Assembly (NCBI GenBank): GCA_008632985.1
Contig: QPGO01000182.1
Span: 62,001-126,000 of the forward strand
DNA length: 64,000 bases
Reading direction: 5' to 3'
DNA from: Psammoneis japonica
Taxonomy: Eukaryota
How positions within the stretch are numbered: position 1 is the stretch's first letter; each line of letters starts with the position of its first letter. Of this stretch, positions 26,500-58,115 are shown in pieces. The notes under the pieces were generated by a model, which did not search any database, had not been told where the DNA came from, and saw only the letters and a list, made by a program, of their open reading frames with translations. A program made the translations under genes and the position numbers.

Positions 26500-27074
26500 A
26501 CGATGATGTTTCTCTAGCTACTGTAAACTAGTTTTCAAGTCGAATGGCACCACCATAGGCCCGACACCAAGACGCCTTTGTCGTTGTCGTTGCTCATTGG
26601 TGTCCAAACGGCTATTAGTGACCATTTCATGGGCGCTCCATTTCGTCGGAATTGGTTTATGTAGTTAGGTTTTTCCTCTAAATCAGATCACCACTTTTTA
26701 CGCTTTTCGCATTCTGGGTGTTACTCGTAGTTAGTTCCATGCTCTGGCTCTGTCGATTTCACCCTTCGTGCTATTCATTTTTCCCGCGGAACCGTGGACC
26801 ACACCGAGCGCGAACCCAGATTTTTTTCTTCGCGCTGATTTTTTTTTCGCGCGCCGCGGTCAAAGGCGCGTTGGCTCGAAACACATCCTCAGACGCCTCC
26901 AGGGCAATGATCACCAGCAGCCCCCCGGTGCGCCATCTGGTGAACAATCCTCTCAAGGCTGGAAGGGTTCTTTAGACGTGGTGTCGAGTCCTGAATCAAA
27001 AAACTCGTCCGAAGATAACTCGCTTGTCAACGGGTGCAAGCACAGACCTTCTGCTTCTTCCTCGACGGACGTCT

Positions 27075-28750: not shown

Positions 28751-29339
28751 CCAGGTGCATGTTGTTGTGTTTGCTGTGCTGTTCTTTGCTTTTTCCTTGA
28801 ATGTGCGCTGCTGGCCTTGTTGCACTGAGTCGGACGAAGACGACCTGTAAATCAACTGTAACTGCATTAGATCTCTGGCATATTTGTTGGAAAGGCGAGA
28901 TTCAAATGTGGTAGACAAGTTTAGTTATGAATTAGGTTTGGTGTGGATGGCAGTGTGGTCCATCTCGGCGATTGCAATCTCGAAATCGGCAGCTTTTTCA
29001 CTCGTGACTTCGAATCACGAGTCGGGAATGGGTGTTGACTAAATCGATTGAATGAGTCACGATTCGGGATTGAAATTTGATCCATTCGATTTGAATCGTT
29101 TGCACAATAAATGGAAAAACTTTGACCCCGCCAGAGAGACAGAAATGCCCAAGAAACGAGCATTATCAGTCTCCTAGTCTCTAAGCCAATGTCTTGTGAG
29201 AATGGAACAAGTGTGCATTGTTCATGGTGTTGGGCATTGGAAAATAAAGCCGATTCACGAGACAATCATTTTTTCTGCCCAAAAACTTCCTCATCCAGAG
29301 CTTTGCGTTGGTCTCATGTGATGCATGAGCATCAAACTA

Positions 29340-30150
29340 GTCAGTTGAAAACATTTCTAAGTTCACACTGCAATGCTGCAGATGTTGTGTCTGCATTTGC
29401 AGTGCATCTTCTTCGCCAGATTCCGTGGAGAGAATTCGTTCACAATGGCGGCAGTTGCAGTGAGCGGACCGATCAGCCCCAGTCCCCAAAATCTGCATTT
29501 GCTTGAGTCTTGCAACCAACACACTCCAAAGCTTTTCAACAGGATTCAATTCAAGGCAGCACACACCAAGCATCAGCAGATGAATGTTGAAACTGTCCCA
29601 GCCAGAGCCAATCTTCTGGCACCGAGTTCTCGCCACACACGTGGATGCTGGCATTGTCGAGCACAAGAACGTCCCCAGGCAACAAAAATGCAGAGATAAT
29701 CCCTCTTTAATGGCAGTGGCAAATGCAGTTGAATCATTTGTTCCATCATTGATGTTGAAAAACACAGGATGCCGCCTTGGATCAACACCGCAAAATCCAA
29801 TTGTCGTGCGCGTGTTCCTAAAGTCCGGGTCGGTGATGACAGGAGAGACACCTCCCCTGCAATTGGATCACATCTGACTTGCTTGTTGAATGTCTCTGCT
29901 GCCTTCAGCAACTTTTCATCTCCAAATTTGATGCGATTGTGGGTCAAGCCAACACAAGCTGAACATGTTCAATTGCTTGTTGGATGTTTTCGGGCTTGCA
30001 TTTGTCAATGGGGACCTTGTCGGTTTTACGGAGATTTGCCTTTGTGTCAAAACTGTCTTTCCAAAAGTGTTGGAGAGTGCGAATGGATGCAAGTGCATCT
30101 GTCCTGTTGAACAGTTCCATCTGACAGCTTGAAAGTGCCCGACTCGGGCA
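29340..30150 (-). pseudogene. DDE transposase remnant (Tc1/IS630 type)
   Basis: IKFGDEKLL, LVLDNASIH (29641-29667) and ELNPVEKLWS (29522-29552), with a frameshift between them. Confidence 0.8.
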
Positions 30151-30699
30151 TTCTTGAAGCACAGCAACACCAGTGAGAGCATGTCAAGAGAGCCCATCGT
30201 TTTGGCACCTGGACCCTTTAGACGCTGAGGTTGTTGATGAGTTGGATCAATCAACCCATCTTCACTGAGCAGCTTGTAACAACCTTGAGGGCCCAAGCAG
30301 GAGATGCTTTGACCACCTTTCCAAGGTGCATCTGACGGCCTTTCACCTGCTGATTCCAGGAGCTCAAAACACGCGTTTGCTGATTCAATTTTCTTTTCTG
30401 TGCCATGGGCCTTGTCAGGGGCATGGCATGCCACCATGGGCATTGGTTTCCAGGCCACTGGAGTCATGCAGTGATGAAACCAGGTGCTCATTGTTGAGAA
30501 ATGGGTGTTGGCACAGGGTTGGCAGCAAAAAAGAAGCCACATGAGCTGAAAAACATTTTGGGGTTCGCAGGGTGTCCACGGTTCCGCGGGAAAGACAACA
30601 TGATGCCTCAGCATTCTGCAACAATTTTGTGTTCAATCACCCTGCAGACAAAACATGCAATCACAGATTTGGGGGTGTGGAAAAACAGACCTTGTGGAC

Positions 30700-33600
30700 T
30701 TTAGCCTCTCTCTGCTCTGCTCTGCTCTGCTCTGGTGGTTTCTGTGCAAATGGCACATTTGGACAAAATGTGCTGTCAACATGATGTCTCAGTCCAAAAC
30801 TCCACCACAATTTTTCCAATGCTCCCCAGCTGTTTTGCCATTGAGAGCAATGCATCAAACACCACAGGGCATGGGGGCATGGACAACACAAGGGAAAATC
30901 AATTTGTGGTGGGCATTTGAAGGCTTCTGAATGCATCATGAGAAATGAGTTTGTCACAGTTGGGGGCCACAAATCAATCGCCGGCATGCTTTTTTTTTTT
31001 GCGCAAAACATGCCATTTTGTGTGCTGTCTTGTGGAATCAGTGCCAGGATTGCTGCAGCCAGAATTGGCACACATGGTGTCACAGCATCTGTGTGGCAAC
31101 CACTGTTTGACATGTTTCAATGTGACATCTCACGCAACCCTCCACCTCCATCTCAGACACCGTCAGACCTCGGTGTTAAATTTCATGCACAAAACAAGCA
31201 AATGCATGTAAGCACTTTGCACAGATTGCACATGATGTGACATTTTCATGTTGTGTTCATCAAACTGTTGCAGGAATGCATGACACATCACAATTTGTGG
31301 AGATTTGCTTCATGATGGTTGAAGGGTTGATTGCAGCACACATCAGGCAGGCACATCACGACCACCATCAGCAGACAATCATGGAAACTGGCACTTGATT
31401 TGCAATGCACCCCATGGAAAAGCATTGCTTCTTTTTCTCAAAAGAGTCAAAATGCACACAGCAACATGCTGAGCCAATTGACAGGGAGCAGACTGTGCCA
31501 AAGCTCCCAACAACATGAGGTGAGAAACAACACTGTGAGATGTGATGAGATTGGACACAACTTGCCATCATTGCAGCTCAGTTTGGAAGGTGCAGAGATG
31601 CCAAGTGACAGCTCAGTGGGTGCCAATGCACCAGTGTCAAAAGTGATGCAACAAAGTGGCAGATAAATTGTCATGGGTGGGTCTCTTGCCACATCTGCAA
31701 TGGAAGAGCAAGATGACATCACGAGCAAGCAACAAAAGAAAAAGTGGTGCAGCAGCAAAATGAGTGACAGGAACAAGATTGCACTGGAGAGCTGCTGCAA
31801 GAATGCATTGTTTGGACAGCACAACTTTCTGAATGACAAGGCCACTGAGAGTCCTGACTGATGGATTGCAGCAATTGTGCTGTCAGAGCTGAGTGGCACT
31901 GTGCCCAAGAAAAGAGAGTGTGAATTTGGGATGTGTCCAAGCATGAGATGAGAAGGCAAGTGACAAGAAGGAGAAATGGTGCCAGCAGGGAACTGAAGAA
32001 AGAATTCTTCTGCAAGCACCACACAAAGCATGCAACAGATGGGAAGTGGAGAAAAAACGGACAAATGGCACCTTGCTGTTCACATGCTCACAGGGCACAT
32101 TGTGGATCACAACAAGAAGAACCCACAAGCAGAAAACAATGACAGGATGCTGACTCTGGAGGAGATGCCAGAGGGGAGGAACAACATGAGAGCCCAAAGT
32201 CATCTCACCTTGCACTTCCTGCCAACTGTGGTCAGAAAGATGATGTGCAAACATCAGCTCAAATCAAGACATTGCCTGAACAAGTTGGCACCTGTGAGGG
32301 ACAAGGCATTTGGTCTGCTGGTGTTGGAGAACAATTGGAGCAAGTGGGCACGCATGTGCAGTGAAACAAAGGAAGAGTTGGGGAGGAGAAAGAGAAGGGA
32401 CTTGTTCCCAATGCAAAATGCGGCAATGGGAAAGGAAAGCAAGCAAGAAGAAGGGGTCACAGTTAGAACAAGCAAGGATCAGAGAGGTGCCAACAACTGG
32501 AAAACACGCTCACAACCCATTGCAGGCAAAGAAAAACAGAGTCTGATGGGTGCTGCCAGAGGCAAAATTCTGGCTCAGTTGTGACCTGCAGTGACTGCTC
32601 ATCCTGCATCTCAACTTCTTCATTTTCCCCTTCTGGTTCTTTCTCCACAACACCAGAATGACTGGTGTGATCTTCTCCCATGCTGCACTTTTGCATCAAA
32701 AGAGAGGCAAAACAAACTGTGGCAATTGCTTGTTTGCTTTCTCTCTGCATGTGCTGGCACTGGTGCAAGTGAAAATGAGTGGCGGTGCTTGCCAGACTGG
32801 GGCCCCCACACTGCAGTCAAAATGACTCAGTGCCCATTGTCTCCAATTGCAGCCGACTGCAACAATGGACAACAGCACTTGCAATCACATTGACCGTGTG
32901 TGGCAAATGCCCAATGCAGTCATTGTTTTTGGATCTGGGGATCAATTGCTTTGCAATTTCATGACAGCTTTTCTTGACATGCCGCTTGTTGGCCTGTGCC
33001 CTGATGTTGCATTGGAAAAACCACCAATCTTTGCTGAAGCTGGCATTCTCATGGGAGACAAGCTGCAACTTTCTGGGAAATGCTGAGACAAGCGGCAATT
33101 GACAGGCTCTTTGCATGTCTGCATTCTCCAAGCTAGAGATCCTGCATGGTCACCACCACAGTCAATGCACTCCACCATTGGACTGTCACATGTCTCACAA
33201 ACTGACAAAGTTTGACCTGTCACAGGAATTTTTTGTTCTGGCAAACGTGTGCATTCAGTGTGCATCTCCGGCAATTGTTTCTCATGTCAGTGGTTGGTTG
33301 ACAGGAAAACAGAAAAAAGGAGGAGATTTGAAATGGACCATGCAAGCTTTTGTCATCCAGGGGGGTGGCTGCTGCAGAGGCACAAAGAGCAGGCCAAAAC
33401 TGCAGCTGAAGGAGGGTGACAATGTGGTGCTGAGTAAGTGAAGTCAAGCTGAGCATCGTGGCTCAGCTTTGAGCCAAAACCCTGCCAGAGATGCCAGCCA
33501 AAGCTGCCAGCTCCAGGCACTCCTCTCTCACTGGGGCGTTTGGGCTGCTCAAGCTGTGCACCAGTGCATTGCTTGGCTCAAAGACTGAACTTTTGGCATG

Positions 33601-33850
33601 GCAAGCTGGAGAGACAAAACCTTGTCAGCTTGACTGCTTGCCTTAGACCCTGCATTGTGAGCAAGCTGCTCTGCAGAACAAATGAGAGACACTGGTGCTG
33701 CCAGTGTGCTGGCATCTTGAGCCACCTCCTCAGGGTGCTCCATGGCCATTGGGCCCCAACCTTGCTTGTGGCTTCCTTGCCTTTCAGCTGCACAAATGTG
33801 CAACATGCATTGCAAAACAGAAAAGAAGTGTGCATCTTAACAATTGCACA
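30700..33850. repeat. Heavily degraded TpA- and CpG-depleted repeat remnants, family not identified
   Basis: TG/CA-saturated sequence. The fragment DKAFGLLVLENNWSKW at about 32300 suggests former coding DNA. Confidence 0.4.
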
Positions 33851-33859
33851 TTGTCACAT

Positions 33860-35082
33860 GTGTCAATCACACCACAATTGTGGATGCATGCAAAGGACAG
33901 ATCAGTCACACAGATCTGAGCAATGGGTCAGTTGTCACACCACACTGCAATGGAAAAAGGACTTCTGTCCTTCTTCTGTCTGTTGTGGAAACACTTGAAG
34001 AATTCTGAAATGTGCTCTTTGGCCAACACATGAACATGTGCACAGATCACAAAAATCTCACACGGAAGACTTCACTGCAGACATGCAGAGTCATGCACTG
34101 GTGACTCAACAGAAGAGTGCAGTCCAAAAATGATTCACCTCAAGGGCAAGGCAAATGTTGTTGCCTGTGAGTGTGGAAGTGAGTTCATCAGACACCAATT
34201 CCGGAACATGGGTTGAAGATGACTGTGGCATCAAATGCAAGCCCACAACTGCACAAAATCCACAAGCAAATGCTGTGATGGAGAAAGTGCACCAAGCGCT
34301 GGGCAACATGCTTCACACATTTGACTTGCAAAATGCATCTTTGGACACAACAAATTTGTTCTCTGGAACTCTGTCAGCAGTGGCCTCTACAGTGCAGTGC
34401 ATTCTGTGCAGCATGCTGCTGTGCAAGCTGTGTCAGGACAACTTGTCTTCAACAGAGACACGACATTTGATGTTCAACACATTGCTGGCTGGAAGTTCAT
34501 TTAGAAACAAAAACAAGAAATTACAAACAAGAATGATGCTCAAGAGAATGCTCAACACACTCCATGCACATGCAGAGTGGGAGAAAGAACACTGCTCAAG
34601 AAAGACTCTCAAAAGTCAGTGCAGCCCCATGTTGGACCACATGAAACAACAACGGTGCATGCCAATGGCACAGTGCAGATCAAACACAGTGGCATCATTG
34701 ACACCATCAGTCCAGTGTCCATCATGCAATGCCATTCAATGAATGACTCTGATGTGCAACTGGGGAGGCGAGTGCAAATGTGGATGCGCATGCAAAGGAC
34801 AGATCAGTCACACAAATCTGATTGAATGTTGAGAATTGCAGGTGCAATCAACAGACAATGTTGACACACAAGACATCAATGCTGAATCATGTCCAGACAA
34901 TCTGTTGTCACAATTGGATTCTCCTTGAGGCCTTTTGTTTGTAGAAGCAGTGCGAATGGTTTGAGCCATTGAGAACTCCTTCGGAGAAACCCAAAATCAT
35001 TGAACAAAATTCAATCTTACAATTTTCCACTTTTTGTGATTTGCTCTGCTTTTGTTTGCACTCATTCTTTGAGCACAGTGCA
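33860..35082 (+). mobile_element. Older Ty3/gypsy remnant: RNase H and integrase pieces, PPT and 3' LTR (34773-35082); same family as 35621-40246 in the opposite orientation
   Basis: LLSVVETLEEF*NVLFGQ..CTDHKNLT, GIKCKPTTAQNPQANAVMEKVHQALGNML, and PPT ggggaggcgag before tgca. The LTR end is the reverse complement of the 39881 LTR start. Confidence 0.8.
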
Positions 35083-35620
35083 AATGGCACCCCAGAGCAT
35101 TGTGCTGGCTTCTTTGTGGCCCAGGAGGATGGCTGCCACATGCACAACAGAGGGCAGCAGGCATGCATCATGACACAGCTGCAAGTGATGGTGCAACATT
35201 GCTGCTCCAAACCCCAAGCTGGCCACCAGCTCTGAGTGCCTCCAGCATGCCTTTTTGTTCAGAGCTGTGCCATGCCAACTCCACAACACTGCTTCATGGT
35301 GGCTTGCATGCATCAAGGAGGCAGCCAGGCCCCCATGTGATGAAGACCACACATGCCACTGACCCCGCGCAAAGCTGTGTTGCCCGGCACAGAGATCTGC
35401 AATGATGGCTGGCTCACATGTGTTGCAAAGAGGGTGTGGAGGCAGTGGCGTGCACAGTCAGTTGTGGCAAAGTCTTGTGCATGACATTGGTGTGTGAACA
35501 GGGGGTCGGGCAAGATTTTTGCCGTGTGTTGTGAAGTCACTCATTTGACTCAGAGCCAGCACTGGCTGTGAACAGCTGCAGTGTGAAAGTTTGGGCAGCC
35601 CAGCCAGCTTGTGCTCCTTG

Positions 35621-35987
35621 TGCACTGTGCTCGAAGAACGAGTGTAAACGAAAGTAGAACAGTGTGCGAAAAGTGGAAATTATGAGATCAGATTTTACTC
35701 TGTGATTTTTGGTTTCTCCGAATGAGCTCTCAATGGCCTGAAGCTTCTGCACTGCTTCCACAGACAAAAGGCCTTTCGGAGAATGTGATTGTGACAACAG
35801 ACAGTCCAAATGCGATTGCTTTTGACACACAAGATGTCAGCATTGTCTGTCGATCGCATTTGCGATTTTCGACTTCCGATCAACTCTGTGTGATCGTTCT
35901 GTCCTTCGCACGCATCCACGACTGTGGCACGATTGACACACAAATGACACGCAATCACATGTGTGTGTGCAACAGTCGCGTGCTGCA
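35621..35987 (-). repeat. 3' LTR (367 bp), TpA-hypermutated
   Basis: Aligns end to end with 39881-40246. Only 4 TpA remain. Confidence 0.95.
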
Positions 35988-36000
35988 CTCGCCTCCCTAA
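35988..36000 (-). other. Polypurine tract
   Basis: Minus strand reads ttagggaggcgag immediately before the 3' LTR TGCA. Confidence 0.8.
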
Positions 36001-39000
36001 TTGCACATTAGAGTCATTTGTTAAGTGGGTCATTCGACGGATGTTGACAGTGTCAACAATGTCTCCACGTTCACTGCATTGTGCCATTGGCAATGGCTGT
36101 TGTCGTTTTGTGTGGGCCATGTGGGGCCATTCCAATTTCCGAATGTCTTGTGAGAGTGACATCGTTTGTTTCTCACTTTGTGTGTGTGCATGCACGGCAT
36201 TGCGTCGAGTGTTCTCATTGACGTTCTTTGTTGACATGAACACAAGGACCAATTGTCCTGCAGTGTTTTTCATGATGTCGATTGCACCTGGCATTGTGCC
36301 CAGCACCCAATGTGCACTCTTTTAATTGTTGTGGCGTTCGCTTCACTTGTGGAGTTCATGCAGTTCTGGCTGGCTAACTTTGTGTGTGCCACATTGCTCT
36401 GCTGCACTTCCACGTGTCGCAAGCAATTGACGATGGTCAAGGACATTTTCTGACCATTTCGTCTTGACAATCCTGGGATGGTTGTGGACTCCTTTGTGGA
36501 TTTCTTTGTCACTTCAACCATCTTTCCTTTGGATTTTGATCGTCATTTGGACGTTTCTTTTTGACATGCCGGCGACATTTTGTCATTCCGAAGGCACTGC
36601 TTTTGTGCACTGTTTGGACAAATGTCCATTTTTTGTGTTTTGTTTCTGAATCTTTGGCACATCTCGTGTGACATCATTTATGTCTTGCCTCGCACATCGT
36701 ACATTGCAGTTGTGCGGGTGCTGCGAGATTGTCTTTTGCCAATGTGAAGCAGGTGCGTGTGATGTGCGCCAATCTGTCACTGATTTTTTTCTTTGACCGT
36801 CCCCAAATGAGGCGATTTTTTCCTTGTGACATGAGCATTTTTGATCTCGCTCGCCTCCACGAAAAGTGTTCACATGACATGTCGCGCCCGACAATTTGGA
36901 GGAAATGTCTTTGTCCCGTTTTGTTCAGTGTCGAGAACTTTGCAATTTAACGGAAAGACATTGTCGCAGGATTTTGGTGGGACCTTTTCAGCCAACTCTT
37001 CTGTGCTGAGGTTTTCCATGGGTTCTATTTTTTTTGCAGCAAGTCGGCTGATCGCTCTTGCGATGACGTTCGCCTTGCCCTCGATGCATTTTATTTCGGG
37101 ACTGGAATTCTGTGTTCTAAGTCGTCAACGCATGACTCTGTCCATTGTGTGTTGTGAACCGTGTGTGCAACAATCTGTTGGCCAAACAGTGTGTTCCGGG
37201 AATTGTTGAGTGTTTCCACTGTGGACAGAAGTTCTTTTTCCGTTGTGACTTGAACATTGCAATGCCATGTTTGACAACAACACAGTTTTTGATGTGATGC
37301 GCTCCACATTTTCGGAGACTTTTCATTCTGTGCTTGTCCTTTTGCCGTTTGACCTTTGTTGAGGTGGATTTGGCCAGAAATGCACAGGAGATCATTGAGA
37401 CTGCATGTCTTCATGGCAGCAACACACATCGACAAGCTGTCGTAATTTTCTTTGCATTTTGCTCAATGTTGCAATTGCCGGAATCGCCTCCATTTTCTTT
37501 GCAATCGGATGTGTGCCGTTGCGTGTGGAAGTCTTGATAATTTTTTTCAAGTCAAGCAGTGAAGGACTTTTGTTTGTCAACCTTCAAAGCGACTGTTCTA
37601 GTCGCATGAATGCCGTTTCAAGTTTTTCTTGTGCAGGTGACATTTTGAAGTTATTTTCTGTCAGGTGTAAATGTTCATTCTCTGACAACTCCAAACCTGC
37701 CATGAGTTCGCTCATGCGTTGCATGAAAACACATGGGGCTCCACAGATTCTTGTCGGAAGTCCACAGCACTCATTTTCCCCCACGGCATTGTTCTGATGT
37801 GAGCACGACGTGTGCTTTTTGATTTTGTGTTGTGGTGTTCCATGATTGAATCGCAGCTTCATTTTTAAAACTTCAATCTTTCACAATTGGTTGAATTCCT
37901 TTCAAATGAATGCCTCCAAAGACTGTGATGGGAGAAGGTTCTCACACGTCGTGGAATCACGTCAGATTTTTTCACGGCGAGATCCATTGATTCTTTCAAC
38001 TCATTTGTCCAAGGAACTTTTCAAAAGGATTTCAAACCTCTTAAGAAGGAGACTGAGTGGTTTATCTTCTTTTGGTTAAGATGCATTGCTGCAGCTGTCA
38101 CTTGATTGGAATCAACGGCGTGACAATGTGAGTCGAGAACCATCGGTCTCGTCATTAACTCCATTCACCGCGTGATGTTTTTCAATGTGATCGGCACTCA
38201 GCTGGAACATTTCTGCATCGAAGAGTGCATCAACATTCTTCACAGGGTAATTGCTTCATTCCCATTTGATTTCTTCAATTGCGCAGTCCAGTGTGATTGC
38301 AAAACTGGACATTGAGTCGCGTCCCATGATCACATCATTCGACCTTGAAGGGCATTTGGTGTCATTGACATGTGCTGTTTGAATGTCAGTGAGTCTTAAA
38401 TTCGCACACTGAGAACTGAATTCGGTGTTCACTGTCAGTCGTAAAGAGCTCACCCTTGGTTTCCCAAGTTTTTTGGTGGCGGACATCTTGGTTCTCAACT
38501 TTGCACGATTTTGCGCAAAATCATGGGCTGACGATGTTCTTTGTCGAGAGAACACGCAGAAGCTTGTTTTTTGCTTTTCTCAGAGAAGCAGTCATGTGGA
38601 CAGCGAGAACAGGACTCGCGTGACATGCTGTGATGCTTTTTCTGGGTTTCCAGACGTCCTGCAACGCGTCACACTCCTTGAGCGGCACAAATTTTTGATC
38701 GGACTCGATCGGGTCAATTTTTCTAAATTGACAGTTTTGTTCGTCAAGCGTTTTAGAGTCTTAATTTTCGCTCTCATTTTTACGTTCCTTTGTCGAGGAA
38801 CTCGCTTTAATTGTTTTTGTGAACTGCCCAGTTCATGGTTCAGTTCAACTCCTCTTTCACAGAGGCATTTCTGCTCTCGTCATGTTCGCGTGCGATTGCC
38901 ATTTAGAGCGTCGTATTTTTGGGTCTCTTTTAGAGCCACCCTTGCACTCTTTCGCTGATTCATTTTCAGAACAGCTTCAATCCGTGATGTGGGTGTTCTT

Positions 39001-39880
39001 TTTTCAAAGATTGGACCTTTCATTCACTTTGGATTGTGGTGGCACCACACAGGAGACCATTTTTGGAACCAAAATTGGAGCCTTTTTGATTGTGGAATCA
39101 ACTGCGCCATCAGAGCCCGAATTGATGTGTTTTTTTGTCATAGACGTCCTTGCCGACCTCTAGACGACTCAAACCTCAATCAGCTCGTAAAGGGCATGAT
39201 CCAGCAGTTCAACATTTTGGACAGCAGGCTGATGCTGCCATCCTTGCGGTGCGAGTGATAGCTGATAAATCAGCGCTCGGTTTCCCGCTAGATTCGACTT
39301 AGAATCCATCTGAGGGTCGCACAGACTCTCATCGTTGACCTCTTGGGTCTGTCAGAGGCTTTCTTGCTGTTGAGCGGCTCTGGTTTCTTCAGGTCGTCTC
39401 GAAAATAATTTCCCTGATTCTGAAGTGCATTTCCTCGGAGGACATGAGTTATGAGACGCTTGAGGCACTTTCCAACGATTCCCTCTTGCTCCTTGGACTC
39501 GAGGATCATCGATTCGGTCTCAAAAAACTCTCCAATAGTCTCTCCTTGCATGGTAGACGTGTTTCTCGGATCTGATCGACTCGGAACTTGCACTCTCTGC
39601 AACCATGACTTGGTGTAGATTTTTTGATGATGCTGTGTGCTTGAGAGCCCTTGATCCTTGGGTGCTTGGAATAGACCGTATTAGAGCGAATCCTCTTGTT
39701 TGGTAGACGAAAAACAGCGTTCCATCTTGAGGCACTGCTCGGCTTGAGCTTCTTCCGCTCGGAAATCGATTCCAGCAGAACTGGTGCGATTCGTTCCTGT
39801 TTATAGAAGAATTTGCAAAGGCACATTAGTTGAAATTTTCATTTTCCGTGCTTTTTACCTTCTGTGGTGTGTGTACACAA

Positions 39881-40246
39881 TGCACTATGCTCGAAGAACG
39901 AGTGTAAACGAAAGTAGAATAGTGTACGAAAAGTGGAAATTATGAGATTAGATTTTACTCTGTGATTTTGGTTTCTCCGAATGAGTTCTCAATGGCCTAA
40001 AGCTTCTGTACTGCTTCTACAGACAAAAGGCCTTTCGGAGAATATAATCGTGACAACAGATAGTCCGAATACGATTGCTTTTGACACATAAGATGTCAGC
40101 ATCGTCTATCGATCGTATTTGCGATTTTCGACTTCCGATCAACTCTGTGTGATCGTTCTGTCCTTCGCACGCATCCACGACTGTGGCACGATTGACATAT
40201 AAATAACACATAATCATATATATGTATATAACAGTCGCATACTGCA
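39881..40246 (-). repeat. 5' LTR (366 bp), nearly unmutated
   Basis: About 29 TpA retained, including catatatatgtatataac. Confidence 0.95.
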
Positions 40247-40983
40247 CTTGCTCACATGGTGCAAAGCACTGTCAGCTGCGCTGGCCTTGGCGTGCACTCT
40301 GCCAGCAAAGCCAGCAGCCAACAAGAGCACAGCACTGGGAAGTCACGCAAGGAGAAGGGCTCAGCCTTGCCACCAAAGCACCAAATGTGTTGCTTGCCAC
40401 ATCTTGTGATTTGAGCCTGCAACCCAAAGTTGTTGGACACATCTGCTGGCAACAGGGAGCACAGGCTGGCATGTGGTGAGGGTGGTGCCTTTGCCAAGAG
40501 CTGCTCTGCACTGGAGGAAGAGGGAAACAGGCCAAAAAGTTTTGCAAGAAATGTTTGATCAATGGTCAGGATGGTGGCCTGGACTTTGATGACAGACAAA
40601 GCAGCTGCAGCACAAAGTGCTTTTGTGATGCAGAGTGCGGGATGAGCAAAGCTTGAGCAAGAGAGCTCTCTCTCTGCTCAGGCTCAAACAAGCAGCACAC
40701 TCTAAAGATGCTGCTGCACATGGCTTGTGCACCAACATGCTCAAAGCTGCAAGTCATAAAAACTGCCACCAACGTTTCAACCAACCGCAGATCAAACAAT
40801 CAACGCCGCTTGGCTGAGCCCCCCCCCCCCCCCCCAAGCTCAGGGGGCAAGAGTGGCCCATTGACTTTCTTCTGGTTTTGTGCACTCAAGAACTTCTTGT
40901 TCTGCAGAAAGTTTTCAAGGTGCTGGAAATTTGAAAAGGTGGTGCTGATTCTTAAAGGTGCTAAGTACTCGTACAAATTTATT

Positions 40984-41172
40984 CAAGTGGGTATCTCCAG
41001 CGGTGGCCTTGACTTCAAAGATCACCTCTTCAATCGTCAAGAGAGAAACATCAAAGGTTCCTCCACCGAAATCAATAATCAAAACATTCTTCTCTTCACC
41101 CTTCTTGTCGAGACCATCGGCAACGGCGGGCACAAGCCCCGAGATGGAACCGGCATCCTTGATGGCCTGACG
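40984..41172 (-). pseudogene. HSP70: HSP70 gene fragment with an internal deletion
   Basis: [57 protein letters not shown]. The NVLRIINEPTAAA segment is missing. Confidence 0.9.
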
Positions 41173-41174
41173 AA

Positions 41175-41872
41175 CTCGGCTGCCTGGGGCTTGCACCAAC
41201 GCCCGAATGTATTTGGGTGACGACGCCTCAATCCCATCTTTTCGCTGAACAAAATCTGATAAAGCCTCTTGTTCATTGTGGGGAAACCAGGATAATCAGA
41301 TAGCAAGGCACTCCATTCTTCTTGTTCTTCTTGCGTCAGTTCCCCAGAGTAATCGAAATTACAGTTGGGCGAAGTGGCGTCAAAGTGAAACTCGGAGAAC
41401 CAGTGCATGCCATACTTGGACGAGGTTGGAAGTTTCATGGCGTACAATGACTGTGCCCTATCCATTGGCAGTCCAAACCCAACAATGCGATCGATTCTCC
41501 TTGCTTGGAAAATTTCGAGAATCTTGTCTTCAAACTCGTCTGCCGCCTCGTCTCCCAGATCTTTGCGCACCTTGTTCAACAGGTTCACCAGCTCATAAAG
41601 GAGATTGAGAATCGCTTTACGATCCATATTGAGAGATGCGGACTTTGGATCATCACGATCCCGCTTGGCAATGTACAGTTCTTTGGCCCATTCTTCAACA
41701 TCTTGACTTCCTTGATCCACAGTGAGCCGTTGCAACGCATCCTGAATGCTCGTGTCGTCGAACTGGTTCTTTAGGGCTTTCAAGGCCTCGATAGCTTCCT
41801 CCATGGTGATTTGGGATAGGAAAGGGCTGTCCTGGACGTTCAACTGAATACAGTATCTCTGTTACTTTTTTA
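41175..41872 (-). pseudogene. Inverted duplicate of the 45252-45935 gene, 3' end joined to the HSP70 fragment
   Basis: Near-identical translation (QDSPFLSQITMEEAI...RWCKPQAAE). Confidence 0.8.
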
Positions 41873-42218
41873 TGTTGAATGGGTATGAACGAATTGGGAC
41901 GGCAACGTTCAACGTTGGGGGACGTGTCGTGTCTCTCTAGAGTACCGGTAGAGAGAGTAGACAACTTCTGTTCGTTTTACGAATACCGAATACCGAATAC
42001 AGTCTGTGCGTTTGGGGTATTTGCGCGCGCAACAAACGAAAACATCCAAAACATCGTAAAAAACAGCGGCAATAGCAAAGGAGACGGCTACTTTGACGGT
42101 GATATAATATTCTTGCAACCACAATGTGTCCAATGCCTCCAGTTCATATTGTTACACCCAATAGTACGAGTGATGATGAGAGTGGCTCATCAAGTGGCGT
42201 GCGTATTGTGTAAGAGAT

Positions 42219-43040
42219 TTGCGCCAGGGACAAATTCAAAATGCTTCCGCCGTTGCCCGCCGGTGGCAATGTCCCGATTCCACCCTTCGGCACTGGAAAA
42301 GCTGGACGAATCCAAAGCATCAAACCGAGCTTCAGAAGAAGCTCAAAGAAGCTATTCCGCACGCCAAGAAAACTGCCGCCGACGGACGTCGCGTGGCCCT
42401 CTCCCTCCTCCTTGATGCTGGGACTCTTGAAGAGAAGCTCATTGTAGTCAACTGGTGGTATAATTTGTCTGTGGATGAGAAACATCGAGAGTTTGATAGG
42501 CTCAAGGGCGTATACCAGCGTCCGACTGTGTCAAACAATCGAGTTCCAGAGCCCAAAAAGGTTGTTCTATGTTCCGATCCTCAAGAAGTGTTGGACGAGT
42601 ATGCAAAGAACAGCGCAAGCGGCAAGAAGCTTTCTGGAAAGCGTTATCGCACGTTGGATGATCCACTTGTAAGGGCACATCATGCAATGGCGAAACCCGT
42701 TCGCAGAGCAGCAACGAAGCTTGAGAGATGCGCTGTTGACACCATGGAATTGTTGCGACAGACTCCCGTTAAATACAATGTATCCCTTGTTTTGGAAAGG
42801 CAAGTAGGAAGTCCCCGCAAAACTGGAGATACCCCACAGGATGAAGCCATTCTAGAGCACCCCAAGAGAATCGCCATTGGTCTCAATCGTGAGAATCTTC
42901 CGTTCAATGATGAAACCGTTGAACGCATGACAACGGACGAGCACACGACCCTCTGGTGTACGGACGAGAATGACAAGGAGACTTACTCGGAGAACAGGGC
43001 GAGGATTCGTGGTCGTGAAAAGGTCAAGGACTCGGTATAG
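42219..43040 (+). CDS. Hypothetical protein (273 aa)
   Basis: Open frame with normal composition. No motif recognised. Confidence 0.5.
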   Translation: MRQGQIQNASAVARRWQCPDSTLRHWKSWTNPKHQTELQKKLKEAIPHAKKTAADGRRVALSLLLDAGTLEEKLIVVNWWYNLSVDEKHREFDRLKGVYQRPTVSNNRVPEPKKVVLCSDPQEVLDEYAKNSASGKKLSGKRYRTLDDPLVRAHHAMAKPVRRAATKLERCAVDTMELLRQTPVKYNVSLVLERQVGSPRKTGDTPQDEAILEHPKRIAIGLNRENLPFNDETVERMTTDEHTTLWCTDENDKETYSENRARIRGREKVKDSV

Positions 43041-43536
43041 AGACGAGCCAACACACTTGCCACGAGTCGTGCATCATCGACTTGGAAAATGATCTTTGAA
43101 GATATCAAGCGAAACGGTCTCAACGGACCTCCTCAAATTGCTCCTAGCACTCGTCGTACCAATGGTACTATTGTCTCACGAATCAGTCAGCTGTTGCTGG
43201 AATGACTAACACGATGCCCGCCATCTTCTGCTCTCTCTATACTTGTATCGAGATAGAGCTTTGTCAAACTCTTGGATCCAATTTGTTTCTGATATGGACA
43301 GTACAATAACTGCTATAGATTGTCTTGGCTACAGCAAGTTCTTTACTTGAAGATAGAAAGGATCCGTGCGAGCAGGGATCTTCCCGCAGGTCTAAGAAAT
43401 GAAAACGGTGTACCGCATTGTACATGCCTTCGTCCAAAGGGTGGGGGGCAACACTCCCCCCTGCGGGTTGCTCCGGTCGGACGTGAGGAGCAGTCGGGTG
43501 AGACGACAACTGCAAGTACTTCATTCACAATCATCG

Positions 43537-44538
43537 CACCGAAGACACGGGCCCAGTGTCTTGGAGCACGGCTCAAACGCTCACGTGCGTGTCGAGGATG
43601 CGCCAAGTCATTCGGGATTTGCTGCACATGGACGTTCTCTAGCCGAGTTTCAGGGTGTGAAGAACACCGAAAACACACCCAAGCTTGCTGCTTGGAATCG
43701 ACTTTTGGATACAGATTTGGGTGCGTGCAATGGAGGGCCGAGTCGCACATTGAAGGAGATCCTCAAAGAGCGCGTCATTACGCCCTTCTCAGAGTCGAGT
43801 AGTAGTCCGTCATATGGGGCAGCTTACTCTGCTATCCTCTTTGGTCCACCGGGTACTGCCAAGACGACGATTTGTGAATCTCTTGCCGAGAGGATGGGTT
43901 GGGACTTTCTTGTCATTTACACTGCTGCATTTTTGGCAGATGGCCTATCAAACGTTGCAGCGAGGATTCGGTATGTGTTTGAACGCCTCCAATCCTTGGA
44001 GCGATGCATCATTTTGTTTGACGAGATAGAAGAGTTTTGTCTTGACCGCGAAACTCCAGGATTGGGAATGGAGAGTCGCATGTTGACAACTGCCATGCTC
44101 ACAGCAATCAATGATTTGAGACGAGCCAAGAGGAGCATCTTCTTCTTGGCGACAAGTCGACTATGAGCATTCGACTCAGCAATCACTCGACCAGGTCGTT
44201 TTGACATGCAGCTATTCGTAGGTACTCCCAATATGGAAGCGCGGTGCATTCAACTTCGACAAAAGCTTGGGTCAGTCCCTGTTAGCGAGAAGCGTAAGAA
44301 AGAAGCCGAAAAAGCCTACAAATCCTTCCTCGAGACCGTTTGGACGGAAGATGCAATGTTTATGAAAAATTTGGAGGGCATGCAGTTTGCAAAAGCATGT
44401 GCCAATATTGTCGCATCGCGAATGGAGCTAACTGATGAAGAAATGGGAGCAATGCTAGAGACTCAGGCTGCAGTCATGACAGCAAGAGGCGCCGTTCGTG
44501 ATGAATACCTTGCCTCGATGGAAATGTCAGGACTGTAG
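43537..44538 (+). pseudogene. Duplicated 3' part of the AAA+ ATPase gene with a premature TGA (44164-44166); homology continues to about 44840
   Basis: Aligns with 25504-26499 and downstream sequence. CGA->TGA relative to the original. Confidence 0.88.
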
Positions 44539-45251
44539 TCGATTGTGTTTCTCTACCTACTGAACTAATTTTCAATTCGCTTGGGACCACCAAGGTCCGA
44601 CACCAATGCGCCTTTGACGTGTTCATTGCCAATTCATTGGCGCTCAATTTCGTCGGAATTTCATTATGTAGTCATGCTTCTACTGCACTGTAAAGCAGTC
44701 ACCGCTTATTACGCTTTTCGCACTCTGGGTGTTAGTTCCATGCTCTGACTCTGCCACTCTGTCGATTTCACCGTTCGTGCTCATGACGCCTCAGTGTTCT
44801 GCGATGATTTTTTGTTCTGGCACCCGCGCAGACGAAACATTCGGTCTATCTCCATCATATACCATACATACACAGATTTGGTCTATCGGTGACCCTACAT
44901 CTTGAGAGGTAATAGACTTGGTGGTCTTGGTCCTACCTTAGAGCATGCAAACAAGGATGCAAAATGACTCGAGTCTTGCATCCCTTGCACTCCTCGGGGG
45001 GATCTCCCGCAGGTCTAAAAACGAAAAATGTCCACAGCTTTGTATCTAGAGTAGAAGCAGTACATACCTTCGTCCAAGTACTTCTAGGAGGAGTGAGTCG
45101 AGTAGAGGGGGGGNGGGGGGGGGGCAGACATGGAGACAGCGCAACGGTACGGTGACAACTGCAACTTCGCACGTTCGCCCTTCATCCATTCATTCATACA
45201 CATCACAAAAAAAGAAACAAGTAAAACAATAAAAAGTAACAGAGATACTGT

Positions 45252-45935
45252 ATGCAGTTGAACGTCCAGGACAGCCCTTTCCTATCCCAAATCACCATGG
45301 AGGAAGCTATTGACGCCTTGATAGCCCTAAAGAACAAGTACGACGACCCGAGCATTCAGGATGCGTTGCAACGGCTGACTGTGGATCAAGGAAGTCAAGA
45401 TGTTGAAGAATGGGCCAAAGAACTGTACCTTGCCAAGCGGGATCGTGATGATCCAAAGTCCGCGTCTCTTAATATGGATCGTAAAGCGATTCTCAATCTC
45501 CTTTACGAGTTGGTGAACCTGTGGAACAAGGTGCGTAAAGATCTGGGAGACGACGCTGCCGACGAGTTTGAAGACAAGATTCTCGAAATTTTCCAAGCGA
45601 GGAGAATCGACCGTATTGTTGGGTTTGGGCTGCCAATGGATCGGGCACAGTCATTGTATGCAATGAAAATTCCAACGTCGTCCAAGTATGGTATGCACTG
45701 GTTCAGCGAGTTTCACTTTGACGCGACTTCGCCCAACTGTAATTTCGATTACTCCCAGGAACTGACGCAAGAAGAACAAGAAGAATGGAGTGCCTTGCTA
45801 TCTGATTATCCTGGTTTCCCCACAATGAACAAGAGGCTTTATCAGATTTTGTTCAGCAAAAAGATGGGATTGAGGCGTCGTCACCCAAATACATTCGGGC
45901 GTTGGTGCAAGCCCCAGGCAGCCGAGATTGTGTAG
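45252..45935 (+). CDS. Hypothetical protein (about 212-227 aa)
   Basis: Intact ORF with a conserved inverted paralog at 41175-41872. Confidence 0.65.
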   Translation: MQLNVQDSPFLSQITMEEAIDALIALKNKYDDPSIQDALQRLTVDQGSQDVEEWAKELYLAKRDRDDPKSASLNMDRKAILNLLYELVNLWNKVRKDLGDDAADEFEDKILEIFQARRIDRIVGFGLPMDRAQSLYAMKIPTSSKYGMHWFSEFHFDATSPNCNFDYSQELTQEEQEEWSALLSDYPGFPTMNKRLYQILFSKKMGLRRRHPNTFGRWCKPQAAEIV

Positions 45936-46498
45936 ATATTGGAACAGCGGAAGGCAGTACAGGGGTCACCGATCTAGTGTTCAGTAGTTGTTTGTTAGTA
46001 ATGCTATGTTATGTTAGAACCCTTTTTCAGACAATGTTAAGTAGTCAAGATATAGGGTGAACGTCTCTTGAAGCTTAAAATGTAATGCATTGAGTGAACC
46101 ACCGACCGCTGACTGATCCAAGTGAACAGGAAAGCTCTCTGTCGATTACAAGTCCATGGCAAATCTCTCGCGAGGCGCAGAATGCACGATTCGCACAATG
46201 CACGATTCGCGGCTGGAGGAATGAAAAAAATCCTTGCACAACCCACACCATGAGAATTCTTTTCAATGGCATGACCGAGTCCTACCAAAGTTTGATAAAG
46301 TTAGAGTCGGAACGATTGAATCAAAACTGACTGAAGTGGCATTGTCTCCACAAAGCGATTTGCAAAGCCTTCCGCTGCCCCTTTCTAGGAAATTTCACAA
46401 GATTGCATGACAATAGATACGAAAATGGGACGCCATAGTAACACAGAAATTAAAAGATATGCTACTGGAATACAGACTACTACATTGACACACTTTCT

Positions 46499-47649
46499 TT
46501 ATTCTTCCACATCCTCACGAGCCCGGTCCAGAGCCGAGGCAATGTCATCGGGCAAGCTGGGGTCGAGCCACGAGGGTTCCGGCAAGCCCTTTTCCTTTAG
46601 GAATTCACAATTAAACATTTTGCCCTGATAACGAGATGCCGAATCACACAAAATTGTGGCCAGCGTGTGTCCCGGCCCGAGTTCATTGGCGAGCCGTTCG
46701 GCTCCCGCCACATTAATGCCCGACGACATGCCCAGGGCAAGACCTTCCTTGGTCAAGAGTTCAAAACACGCATTGAGTGCGGTCGTGTCGTCAATCTCGT
46801 AATTGTAATCGGGAGTAAAGCCTTCCAAATTGGCCGTGACGCGGCCTTGTCCAATTCCTTCGGTAATGGAATTGCCTTCCGACTTGAGTTCGCCGTCCTT
46901 GTAATAACGATGCAATGCTGCTCCACAGGGATCGGTCAATCCCACCTTGACGTCGGGATGGAATTCACGAAAATACATGGCACATCCCGCAATAGTTCCG
47001 CCCGTCCCAATGGCGCAGGAAAAGGCATTGAGTTCAGGAAGTTGTGCCATGATTTCGGGCGCCGTCGTTTCGTAATGAGCGCGCCGATTGTCGACATTGT
47101 CAAACTAATGTTGGAAAACGAGTCAGTTACGAATCAGTACCGCGAGCACTTTTTCCACCAATCTCAACAAACCGAAATGTTGCTTACCTGATTGGCCCAG
47201 ACACCGCCCGGAATTTCACTCGCCAGTCGTCCCGACAGTTTGATGTAGTTGTTGGCATGGCGATAGGGTTTGGCGTCCACTTCAATCAACGTCGCACCTG
47301 CCTGACGCAGCGTGTCTTTTTTCTCTTGAGTCTGTGTACGAGGAATCACAATGATGCTCTTGTATCCCTTGGCATTCGCCACGTACGACAATCCAATTCC
47401 GGTATTGCCTGCCGTCCCCTCGACAATGGTTCCACCGGGCTTGAGCTTGCCATCACGCTCCAATCCCTCCACCAAACTGCGAGCCGCGCGGTCCTTGACG
47501 GATCCGCCTGGATTGAGAAACTCAGCCTTGCCGTAAATCTTGCAACCCGTCCGTTCCGACGGTCCACGCAACAAAATGAGCGGCGTGTTTCCAATGGCAT
47601 CAACAAAGCCATCATAGACGGCAGGAACGAAGGATTTGGATTTTGACAT
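46499..47649 (-). CDS. cysK: Cysteine synthase (PLP-dependent O-acetylserine sulfhydrylase family); intron about 47105-47187, possible extra 5' exon
   Basis: IGNTPLI, KAEFLNPGGSVKDRAA, EGTAGNTGIG, GTGGTIAG, TEGIGQG, GMSSGIN. Confidence 0.92.
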
Positions 47650-48894
47650 ATGGTGACGCTTCTGATGAAGAAAAAAAAGAAGCATGAAAGTGAGTGGTCG
47701 TAAGAGTTTCTCCGTTTCTCCGAACACATCATGTGAAAAAACCGAAGCATCGTGACTTCTGACGCTTTGAAACATCTGCTTCCTTCCGGCGAGGACTACT
47801 CTCTACGACTAGGGCCTACTAGGAAAGGACGAAAGTAGCGCTTACCGTCAACTGTGATCTCTTGTCAATGAAGCAGAATGCGACTGGGTTAGCTGGCACT
47901 GAGGTGATGTTGATTGTGTGATGCAAACCACTGTAATCATACATCGCAGAAAGATCTGATGGATCGGGCGACAAAGATCGTGCGTGCGTTCCTTGCTCGT
48001 TTTGCGGCGCAGATTTCGCCATCGATGTTTTCTGCACTCGTAGCTCGAAATCAATCTCAATGTGTCTATAAATAATGCTTCATGAATAAAGATATAATAA
48101 TCGCGCTAAATTTATTGATAAAACAGGTATGGCAGTGGCGGCTATGGTGACAGACAGAAGGCCATGAGCAAGTTGTGAGAAAGGACATGCCTTGGCCAGG
48201 AACTACCGCACGGTAGAGTAGAGAGTAGAAAGTTGGAAGTGGAAAGTGCAAAGGGAAGTCGATGTTCATGGAGGAGCGAGCTCAAAATCACATGTGCTGC
48301 AGGTGATGAGCTGGTGCACACCATCCTGCGCTGGCTGCATTTTTGCTTCAACCCAGTTGCCCCACAACGTGATGATGCTCCCTGTGTTTTTGTGGCACAA
48401 AAGCGGCAGTTTCCATGCATGTGTTCAAAGGGTGCCACCATTGGCAGCTTGCCACCTTGCTCTTTTTTCAATGAAAAATGGCAAAATGGGCCAGGACCCT
48501 CTCATTCTCTCTGGAGCATCTGTGGCAAGCAAAACAAAAAAATTGAACTCTTTGGCTCTGATGGTGGCTGGAGGTGGCAACTGTGAATGACAAAAGTCAG
48601 GCAGATTTGTGAAACATGAACGGAGATGATTGGCTTGCGACAGACAGAATTGAGCAAGTGACAACAAAGACTCAAGATGAAGATTTGGCATTGCAGGCCC
48701 GTCTCTCCTGGATGGAACAACGCGCATCACCTGGAAAGCAATGTCGCGCATCTGTCATGTCTGGTGTGAAGAGTGGGGCATGATGGGTGCCCCTGCAATC
48801 CAAAGAGTGCTCCTGAAAACCTGACACATGACACAACATGCTCTCTCATCTCATTTCTCTGACTCCCCGCTTGCCAAAAAGGTTGTCACGTGCC

Positions 48895-49756
48895 ATGGAC
48901 TTCAACCAGTGCAATGCCCACCCGAGGGATGCCCACATTGATTTTAATGCAGAGGCTCATGAGCCTTTCATTGATGGGTTGTCTAAAAGCATGACAAGCA
49001 CAACAACCCTGCTGGGAAATTTCTTCCAAAGTTTGATGCCGATGCCATCCTGGCAAAGTGCTGTCACCGATGGCAGCAAAATCTCTACAAGAAGCCTGGG
49101 TGCCATGGAAAGACAAAAGAGGAGACAAAGGAAATGTGGAGAGCCAACAAAGAAGATGCGGCTTCACAGGGCACACATCTCCACACAGCCAGTGAGCCCT
49201 GCTGTCCAGGCAAGGATGTCGATTGTGACCAGGAAACAATTGATTGGAGACAATTCCTGTCATTTCAAGAGGAAAATCAGTTGTCACCCTTTCGAACAGA
49301 GATGCGTCTTTGGTCAAGTGATCACTGGCTGGCAGGGACAATTGACATGGCAGTCATGAATGCAGATGGAGCACTTTCCATTTGTGACTGGAAAAGGACC
49401 AAGGGGAAAGCATCTTCCAGAATGAGAGGTCATGGGGTCGCCATGGCTTCGGTCCTCTCTCCAATCTTCCCGACAACCACTTTTGCAGGTGCAGGATGCA
49501 GTTGAACTTGCACCGGGAACTGCTGGAGAGCTGCTGTGGCCATGAAGTCAGCTCCATGCACGTCATGAGCTTTCATCCAAAAGCTGGAACCTGTGAATCA
49601 ATGGCCACAGATCGCATGGAAACTCATGCCAGGGCCCTTCTGGATCTCCAGCATCTTGATGTTGAGCCTGGCAACGTTCAGCAGTTAGCCTCAAATGTCA
49701 GTGCTCTGGCAATCAGTGATGGCAAACAAGCCATGAGGGAAGAACTTGAAAATTAA
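48895..49756 (+). pseudogene. PD-(D/E)XK nuclease-family gene, frameshifted and TpA-hypermutated
   Basis: NAHPRDAHIDF..TSTTT, GTHLH, PFRTEMRLW..LAGTIDM..LSICDWKR, QLNLHRELLESCCG..MHVMSFHP. Confidence 0.75.
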
Positions 49757-58100: not shown

Positions 58101-58115
58101 TTGCTGTAACAAGTC

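Follow-up and report, generated by a model that had tools for sequence, protein, structure and literature searches.

Localized TpA-specific DNA hypermutation suggested for the retrotransposon islands of a diatom-like genome

Introduction

How can the two long terminal repeats (LTRs) of one retrotransposon insertion come to differ at most of their TpA dinucleotides and almost nowhere else? The question is raised by an LTR element at positions 35621-40246 of a 64,000-nucleotide stretch of DNA from Psammoneis japonica (GenBank assembly GCA_008632985.1, contig QPGO01000182.1, positions 62,001 to 126,000 of the forward strand). We refer to this whole stretch as the window and give all coordinates relative to its first letter. 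A preliminary description of the window had proposed that one LTR of this element was altered by an intense and context-specific mutagenesis of DNA after integration. Our analysis covers this one 64-kb assembly window and the Logan contigs of one sequencing run (X1). We conclude, with a probability of about 0.8, that the nuclear genome of a diatom-like alga is subject to localized, TpA-specific DNA hypermutation of its transposon islands and that this process has overwritten the LTR element near the edge of one such block. A TpA-specific mutator of mobile DNA was first reported in 2026, in laboratory lines of one alga. Judged by its sequence signature, the present case is best filed under the same kind of hypermutation, described once before (2026, Bigelowiella natans), with a diatom-like genome as the host and retrotransposons as the apparent targets.

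Differences between the two LTRs

The two LTRs were aligned with MAFFT (35621-35987, 367 bp, on the left and 39881-40246, 366 bp, on the right; 366 aligned columns). They differ by 31 substitutions, all of which are transitions (31/31, no transversions), and by a single 1-bp indel in a run of T. The right LTR contains 29 TpA dinucleotides and 25 of these are changed in the left LTR: 13 to TG, 12 to CA and none to CG. The preliminary description had estimated about 25 of 29 from a hand alignment, and both this figure and its division between TG and CA proved exact; the stretch that it gave as an example lies at 40213-40230 in the right LTR and at 35955-35972 in the left LTR. The other differences were also as it had listed them. 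Five are of the CpG type (three with CG in the right LTR and TG or CA in the left, two with CG in the left LTR and CA in the right), and the single remaining one is a T-to-C change in a TT context. Changes from A:T to G:C in the left LTR make up 26 of the 31 differences, and the GC content is 0.39 for the right LTR and 0.46 for the left.

These changes are concentrated on one dinucleotide and on one side. Within TpA, 25 of 58 bases are changed, compared with 1 of the approximately 266 bases that belong to neither TpA nor CpG (Fisher p = 2.8e-20), and none of the 25 TpA changes is found in the right LTR (25:0 split, binomial p = 6e-8). Four TpA are left in the left LTR, all within its first 80 bp, which keep 4 of 8. 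The LTRs diverge by 8.5% in total (Kimura two-parameter distance, K2P, 0.093) but only by about 0.4% once TpA and CpG are set aside, and the warning that LTR-divergence dating would be invalid holds for this element.

The two repeats belong to an insertion with the hallmarks of an LTR retrotransposon. They are direct terminal repeats with TG...CA ends, they are flanked by a short target-site duplication, CTTG, read at 35617-35620 and again at 40247-40250 as had been claimed, and a run resembling a polypurine tract (35988-35998) adjoins the left LTR. This run is purine-rich on the minus strand. Its first 10 bases are also found in an older copy of this family, in inverted orientation (34633-35082, plus strand; an LTR with the adjoining internal part, about 74% identical). 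Because the purine run abuts the left LTR and is conserved in this diverged copy, the element most likely lies on the minus strand, with the right LTR as its 5' LTR and the left LTR as its 3' LTR. The TpA-rich repeat had been called the 5' LTR in the preliminary description; on the forward strand it is the right-hand copy, and the name holds only for the minus-strand orientation that the polypurine tract suggests. No Pfam family was found in the 3.9-kb interior, either in its 26 open reading frames (ORFs) or in three read-through frames (best match RT_RNaseH, E 0.042), and the interior showed no similarity to 11 copia polyproteins. A TGG-type primer site was also not found beside the right LTR. 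We take the element to be non-autonomous or decayed. The summed depth of its family in the X1 contigs is 1,600-45,000, far above the values of the flanks (83-133), which indicates a high-copy family.

The altered state does not extend over the entire element. The left LTR retains 4 TpA (rho(TpA), the abundance relative to expectation, 0.15) and the internal region from 35988 to 38913 has a rho(TpA) of 0.14, its surviving TpA lying mostly within TTAA, CTAA, TTAG and CTAG. The following zone (38914-39140) holds the edge of the hypermutated tract, as indicated by a shift in the contexts of surviving TpA: sensitive contexts (ATAG, ATAA, GTAG, GTAT) are common from 39141 rightwards, and mostly resistant ones are found left of 38914. 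The internal region from 39141 to 39880 appears spared (rho(TpA) 0.43, near the 0.54-0.58 of the gene blocks described below), and the right LTR, with its 29 TpA and a rho(TpA) of 0.86, represents the unmutated state. Beyond the target-site duplication, an older right flank (40247-40950), which the insertion separates from the main repeat block, contains 2 TpA (rho TpA 0.05, rho CpG 0.17).

It had been considered that the two LTRs might belong to different insertions or haplotypes, and the X1 contigs mostly answer this concern. One contig links position 35615 to 40248 with two letters between them, so that the flanks are contiguous without the element and the target is single. The flanks are therefore contiguous in some allele or paralogue, which argues against two unrelated insertions. 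Moreover, at the positions equivalent to 40062 and 40068 both LTRs read A, whereas some 95% of the read depth of the family supports T (31,906 of 33,360) and G (24,607 of 25,916), respectively, in agreement with the old copy. Sharing these family-rare variants indicates that the two LTRs are sister copies. Immediately ahead of the target site, the contig that joins the flanks reads TT instead of the CC of the window, and a contig of the left flank differs at 11 of 217 positions. These mismatches suggest that the flanks are a repeat or that the run comes from a diverged allele or strain.

Direction of the changes

The older inverted LTR copy (34780-35082) was used as an outgroup. It is usable at 16 of the 25 changed sites, the other nine being gaps. 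At seven sites it presents the same derivative as the left LTR and at five the opposite derivative (TG instead of CA or the converse); at three sites the base that changed is the one found in the right LTR (once as a full TA), and one site is uninformative. We reject TG/CA as the ancestral state because five sites would then need two substitutions each and three would need parallel changes, whereas an ancestral TA requires a single step. In addition, the right LTR, with its rho(TpA) of 0.86, is without the TA excess left by repeat-induced point mutation (RIP). Together with the conversion of tyrosine codons to histidine and cysteine codons in a copia element of the same window, these results support the proposal that the differences are DNA changes from TA to TG or CA, on both strands and after integration.

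TpA-depleted blocks alternate with gene blocks

Over the whole window, TpA is found at 0.33 of expectation and TG and CA at 1.41. The distribution of TpA is bimodal: 173 are found in 31,406 bp of depleted blocks (about 5.5 per kb) against 1,144 in 30,810 bp of gene blocks (about 37 per kb). The depleted blocks were counted as 1-13050, 26800-38500, 40247-40950 and 48250-54200, with the gene blocks (13051-26780, 40951-48230 and 54201-64000) as the remainder. The first repeat block (1-13050) has a rho(TpA) of 0.11; the block that hosts the LTR element (26800-35620) has 0.08, with a rho(CpG) of 0.32 and a rho of 1.8 for TG/CA; and the third (48250-54200) has 0.04, with a rho(CpG) of 0.27. The edges of the blocks are sharp, within about 200 bp. 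Dense TpA ends at 26772, and the TpA that come after it are at 26973 and 27016; the same is observed at 48226/48945 and at 54209. The gene blocks themselves have a rho(TpA) of just 0.54-0.58, which may be due to a common avoidance of TpA or to the same process acting at a low background level.

The two types of blocks also differ in content. A Pfam family was found in none of the 25 ORFs tested in depleted blocks and in 12 of the 22 tested in TpA-normal blocks. The latter, which belong to host genes, include ArfGap, TAFII55 (TAF7), AAA, PPR, CS+SAP, PALP, nitroreductase, TIR and glycosyltransferase families, and the best matches of the ArfGap ORF are diatom proteins (58% identity), which points to a diatom-like organism other than Bigelowiella. 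The depleted blocks are full of long, overlapping open frames.

TpA and CpG have not been lost together. The right LTR represents the unmutated stage (rho TpA 0.86, rho CpG 1.49). In the left LTR and the interior of the element, TpA is lost and CpG is kept (rho TpA 0.14-0.15, rho CpG 0.84-1.03), as is also the case for the copia remnant at 6737-10199 (0.18 and 0.67). Finally, both are lost in the region 33000-35620 (0.05 and 0.13). This series suggests that the loss of TpA is fast and early and that the decay of CpG is slower.

Duplications located within the gene blocks served as controls and show unremarkable spectra of substitutions. The pair 43532-44781 and 25499-26772 (88-91% identity) differs by 62 transitions and 49 transversions, and the inverted pair 45225-45926 and 41175-41876 (94.7% identity) by 15 transitions and 22 transversions. 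None of their double mismatches opposes TG to CA (0/25 and 0/4). Among pairs of repeats from depleted blocks, such TG-versus-CA mismatches account for 6/9, 19/51, 22/77, 17/81, 12/66 and 18/69 of the double mismatches. Such frequent mismatches are expected if the repeat copies lost their TpA and CpG independently of one another.

Strand symmetry and sequence context

Each changed TpA of the LTR pair was altered at one base only. Such a pattern agrees with a target consisting of an A that follows T, because once TA has become TG the A of the other strand follows C. The two strands were hit equally (13:12), and the changes form 17 strand runs along the LTR, for 13.5 +/- 2.4 expected. The absence of long strand runs suggests many independent events and not one processive pass; strand-coordinated, processive editing was ruled out by this runs test.

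The survival of TpA depends on its neighbors. When NTAN tetranucleotides (N, any nucleotide) are compared between depleted and gene blocks, survival is highest for TTAA (0.72) and CTAA (0.44), followed by GTAA (0.21), CTAG (0.20) and ATAA (0.14), and declines through CTAC (0.10), ATAG (0.066), GTAC (0.023) and ATAC (0.018) to ATAT (0.012). These values fit an additive decay per strand that is set by the 3' neighbor, of roughly 2.2 log units for TAT, 1.9 for TAC, 0.8 for TAG and 0.17 for TAA. The 25 events of the LTR pair comprise 15 TAT, 5 TAC, 4 TAA and 1 TAG.

A copia polyprotein that lost most of its tyrosines

The first depleted block contains the remnant of a copia (Ty1-type) polyprotein on the plus strand (6737-10199), with an ORF of 983 open codons at 6737-9688 and a match that continues in another frame to 10199. 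We compared it to 89 copia homologues (about 1,370-1,400 residues, E up to 0.0), most of which have PF07727 and some of which are named from Fragilaria and Phaeodactylum. Identity to the closest of them (P0121) is 53% over 965 residues and 60% over a further 184. The 44 tyrosines of this homologue align in the window's copia to 20 histidines, 11 cysteines, 3 tyrosines and 10 other residues, and the replacement codons for histidine and cysteine are CAY and TGY (Y, pyrimidine), which gives the pattern TAY to CAY or TGY. In an alignment with 17 homologues, 10 columns have tyrosine in at least 80% of them; there the window presents 6 histidines, 2 cysteines, 1 tryptophan and 1 tyrosine; at equally conserved columns it keeps tryptophan, proline, histidine and cysteine in 100% of cases. 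The YxDD box of its reverse transcriptase reads HADD. Tyrosine represents 0.4% of the copia ORF, against at least 2.35% (median 3.5%) in the 89 homologues.

The poverty in TpA is not a trait of the copia family, as the rho(TpA) of the copia remnant is 0.18 and that of 80 metagenomic relatives is 0.46-0.96, none of them being TpA-depleted. These 80 were kept from 505 confirmed loci found with a peptide pattern that contains tyrosine or phenylalanine; since this pattern disfavors mutated copies, the metagenomic result is no evidence that the process is absent from other species. The frame of the copia remnant is open over 983 codons with its catalytic tyrosine gone, which fits, like the long open frames of the depleted blocks in general, a process that creates no stop codons. 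Indeed, changing TA to TG or CA cannot make a stop in any frame, because stop codons contain no C and TGA arises only from TAA. The Pfam models gave no score for either copia part (the polyprotein frame or the upstream ORF), although the homologues carry PF07727.

The copia element extends over 4982-10199 and also includes an upstream ORF of 551 codons with 0% tyrosine. Around it lie four copies of an LTR-like repeat unit (1-1592, 2448-3973 in tandem, 3972-4601 and 10686-11675), all of them TpA-free. Their CpG content is unequal, with for instance 52 CpG in 43-949 and 4 in 10767-11664. The copies that flank the copia element are CpG-poor and its interior is not, so that CpG decay is uneven along one element.

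Alternative explanations

The strongest alternative accepts the mutation process and attributes the one-sidedness of the LTR pair to an allele mosaic. The insertion would then be present as one fully mutated and one unmutated allele, diatoms being diploid, and the assembly, or a tract of mitotic gene conversion, would have joined about 3.3 kb of the mutated version to the ends of the unmutated one. The mutated tract is internal, since the left LTR has kept half of the TpA in its first 80 bp and the last 1.1 kb of the element is spared, and such a pattern resembles a conversion tract or two haplotype switches. It is also the case that the X1 contigs do not bridge the unique flank into either LTR, and epiallelic differences are conceivable given that only some B. 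natans lines showed hypermutation in the main text of the preprint. We nevertheless regard this possibility as unlikely: it requires two switch points within 4.6 kb, no second version of the LTR-flank junctions was seen among the X1 contigs, and the zone 38914-39140 differs in its surviving contexts and in no other respect. Even if true, a mosaic would leave the mutation process, our main finding, untouched. A further concern is that the signal comes from sequencing or polishing, with modified T or A at TpA in silent chromatin being read as TG or CA by the basecaller. Base modifications give systematic and context-specific errors in long reads, the effect is block-wise as expected of a chromatin-linked modification, and the short-read X1 contigs contain only 0.42 of the window's sampled words. 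An artefact is nonetheless very improbable. Miscalls made strand by strand should give mixed or CG calls, and the changed sites are always a clean TG or CA. The older blocks show proportionate transversions, indels and CpG decay, as real aging would produce; of the 3,420 contigs of an independent run that were aligned to the window, 610 match it at 99% or more; and the preprint's main text describes the same signature in Illumina data of B. natans lines.

We also considered that the direction could be reversed, TG and CA being ancestral and the right LTR having been struck by C-to-T changes at CpA/TpG through a RIP-like process as in Neurospora. RIP is the classical repeat-directed mutator and yields precisely such CA/TG-versus-TA differences between copies, and the right LTR has 79 TpA per kb against about 37 in the gene blocks. 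This reading is hardly credible in view of the outgroup (8 of 16 sites contradict it, five by requiring double substitutions), of the copia tyrosines that became histidine or cysteine and not the converse, and of a right LTR whose rho(TpA) shows no excess. Moreover, a rho of 0.04-0.11 is not possible as the ancestral state of DNA that once coded for proteins, the host genes have normal TpA, and RIP makes stop codons, yet the depleted blocks are rich in long open frames. Still another candidate is A-to-I hyperediting of the element's RNA by an ADAR-type enzyme before reverse transcription. A-to-G hypermutated retroelements exist, and ADAR prefers G as the 3' neighbor of the edited A. On the 5' side it prefers U, according to the Discussion of the B. 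natans preprint (bioRxiv 10.64898/2026.01.13.699255), as would be needed here. We give this candidate virtually no weight. Editing acts on a single RNA strand and should change sense TA to TG only, against 13 TG and 12 CA in our data, and it is established that the LTRs of a new copy share template ends and start identical, whereas these differ. The preliminary description had dismissed RNA editing for its single-strand polarity, and rightly: it can neither make the LTRs of one insertion differ nor hit both strands. The flanking DNA outside the element is likewise depleted, and the 3' preference is for a pyrimidine, unlike that of ADAR. Two more general explanations were ruled out: GC-biased gene conversion, because it has no dinucleotide specificity, and selection against TpA, because the synonymous and non-coding parts of the gene blocks keep their TpA.

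Several observations weigh against the interpretation that we favor. The window contains a single LTR pair whose "before" state is known. The context estimate sets repeat blocks against gene blocks, and the two may have started from different compositions; at LTR sites where one strand is in a "sensitive" context that strand was hit in 8 of 11 cases, a weak support for the context effect. In copia, tyrosine codons gave histidine over cysteine by 20:11, where a strict TAY rule predicts cysteine to be at least equal, and 7 of the 20 histidine sites follow a pyrimidine; the preference for a 3' pyrimidine is thus not strict. Both LTRs should have been hit if the process were triggered by homology. 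A chromatin edge inside a 4.6-kb element would be unusual, and an allele mosaic could mimic it. Finally, a mutation-accumulation study of Phaeodactylum tricornutum describes a GC-to-AT bias and mentions no TpA effect (PMC6604790).

Proposed mechanism

Under localized TpA-specific hypermutation, each TpA would become TpG or CpA through one A-to-G change on either strand, after which the site would no longer be a target. The process would be confined to sharply bounded blocks between genes and would act much faster than ordinary substitution (25 TpA changes for one other non-CpG change in the LTR pair) and faster than CpG decay. A pyrimidine on the 3' side of the mutated A would be preferred, with TAY well above TAG and TAG above TAA. 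Elements would be disabled by missense changes such as the loss of tyrosines, and stop codons would never be created. At the time of its insertion near the edge of a depleted block, the LTR element would still have had a normal content of TA. The 700 bp that separate it from the gene side of this block (40247-40950) were depleted earlier. The element would then have been overwritten over about 3.3 kb (from 35626 to approximately 38900), the last 1.1 kb with the other LTR lying outside the tract.

From the spectrum of changes, we infer that the lesion would arise when an enzyme deaminates adenine in DNA to hypoxanthine. Because TpA is its own complement, a T-to-C lesion at R-T-A (R, purine) would formally have the same outcome. 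The process was probably directed by silent chromatin and not by sequence homology, since the family is high-copy and yet one LTR of an identical pair was spared, and since the tract ends inside the element (38914-39141), and it would presumably serve as a genome defense. The Pfam scans of the window's ORFs revealed no candidate for an ADAT2-like DNA adenine deaminase. On a broader scale, we tentatively propose, at somewhat less than even odds, a chromatin-directed defense by DNA adenine deamination that is common to diatoms and chlorarachniophytes, and thus perhaps to many lineages of the supergroup of Stramenopila, Alveolata and Rhizaria (SAR). This "reverse RIP" would remove TpA from silenced transposons and viruses, spread from silent blocks without homology and kill elements by missense changes with their frames left open.

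The old copy at 34633-35082 and the left LTR with its adjoining interior (35621-36119) lie in inverted orientation, about 540 bp apart. A transcript across this inverted repeat would give a hairpin RNA beside the mutated end of the element, a possible cue for silencing to spread from there.

Comparison with known systems

The closest known case is that of B. natans. In mutation-accumulation lines of this species, 231 of 302 new nuclear substitutions were found in two integrated viral regions (Mettrop et al. 2026, bioRxiv 10.64898/2026.01.13.699255). According to the main text of this preprint, nearly all of these were A-to-G or T-to-C changes, each of which fell at TpA, at about 6e-7 per site per generation, and only some lines were affected. 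The same text describes clusters of the B. natans genome that are TpA-poor, rich in CpA+TpG and enriched in reverse-transcriptase and DDE domains, and its authors propose an ADAT2-like (ADAT/TadA-like) deaminase. As far as these descriptions go, the two cases share near-exclusive A-to-G/T-to-C changes at TpA on both strands, bounded mobile or foreign regions within an otherwise normal genome, and a long-term loss of TpA with a gain of CpA+TpG. They differ in lineage (a rhizarian, chlorarachniophyte, there and a diatom-like stramenopile here) and in targets, which are giant-virus or virophage inserts in the preprint and LTR retrotransposon islands here. The depletion is far deeper in our window (rho 0.04-0.15 against the 0.45 given for the B. 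natans region of nucleocytoplasmic large DNA virus, NCLDV, origin). Relative to the main text of the preprint, the natural before/after pair, the 3'-pyrimidine bias, the edge inside one element and the later stage of CpG decay are found only here; that text mentions neither diatoms nor LTRs nor trinucleotide context. Conversely, de novo events were measured in B. natans, whereas ours is a signature read from sequence alone. Our literature search found no report of TpA hypermutation for diatoms or other stramenopiles.

Fungal RIP, known from Neurospora, is also a dinucleotide-specific transition mutator of repeats and transposons that leaves compositionally distinct blocks beside normal genes. 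It acts via a cytosine methyltransferase-like protein in the premeiotic dikaryon. Its polarity is the opposite: RIP changes CpA to TpA, gains AT and makes stops, whereas the process described here changes TpA to CpA or TpG, gains GC and makes none. RIP also mutates both copies of a duplication, in contrast to the sparing of one of two identical LTRs (25 versus 0 changes), and the repeats of the window are TA-free and rich in open frames rather than TA- and stop-rich as RIP would leave them. The deamination of 5-methylcytosine likewise feeds TG and CA and constitutes a second process in the window, visible at 3 + 2 LTR sites and in the oldest blocks (rho(CpG) 0.13-0.32). It differs from the TpA process in its slower pace, in affecting the two LTRs about equally, and in having C, not A or T, as its target. 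Among enzymes, the tRNA adenosine deaminases TadA and ADAT2-ADAT3 resemble the proposed activity in converting A to I at an A preceded by U or T. Editing of DNA by ADAT2 has been described in amphioxus, as cited in the B. natans preprint (bioRxiv 10.64898/2026.01.13.699255), and the variant TadA-8e is described as preferring a YAC context (PMC13109818). By that description, it differs from the TAY preference of the window, where TAT is at least as good as TAC.

Implications

As a second and independent case, with near-saturation on retrotransposons and a natural before/after pair, this window suggests a widespread and overlooked genome defense in eukaryotes. About half of it would be the end product of hypermutation, and it offers a starting point for identifying the deaminase involved and the signal that targets it. 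LTR divergence overstates age approximately 20-fold here. Annotation may be affected as well, as Pfam models miss hypermutated elements and gene finders may call dead, stop-free elements with very long frames. If such a shared defense exists, much of the intergenic DNA of diatoms would be such an end product, and LTR dating, the annotation of transposable elements and ORF calling would be systematically misled. A natural enzyme with a TA(Y) preference on chromosomal DNA would also be of interest for base editing.

Other features of the window

The first of the two control duplications (25499-26772 and 43532-44781) spans an AAA ATPase ORF. The region 13217-17974 contains a TIR ORF of 180 amino acids followed by an ORF of 1,359 amino acids with ResIII, DEAD and a Schlafen-type helicase/ATPase region and a C-terminal TIR domain; this immune-like TIR/helicase architecture begins at the edge of a depleted block. 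The assembly presents a single N, at position 45114.

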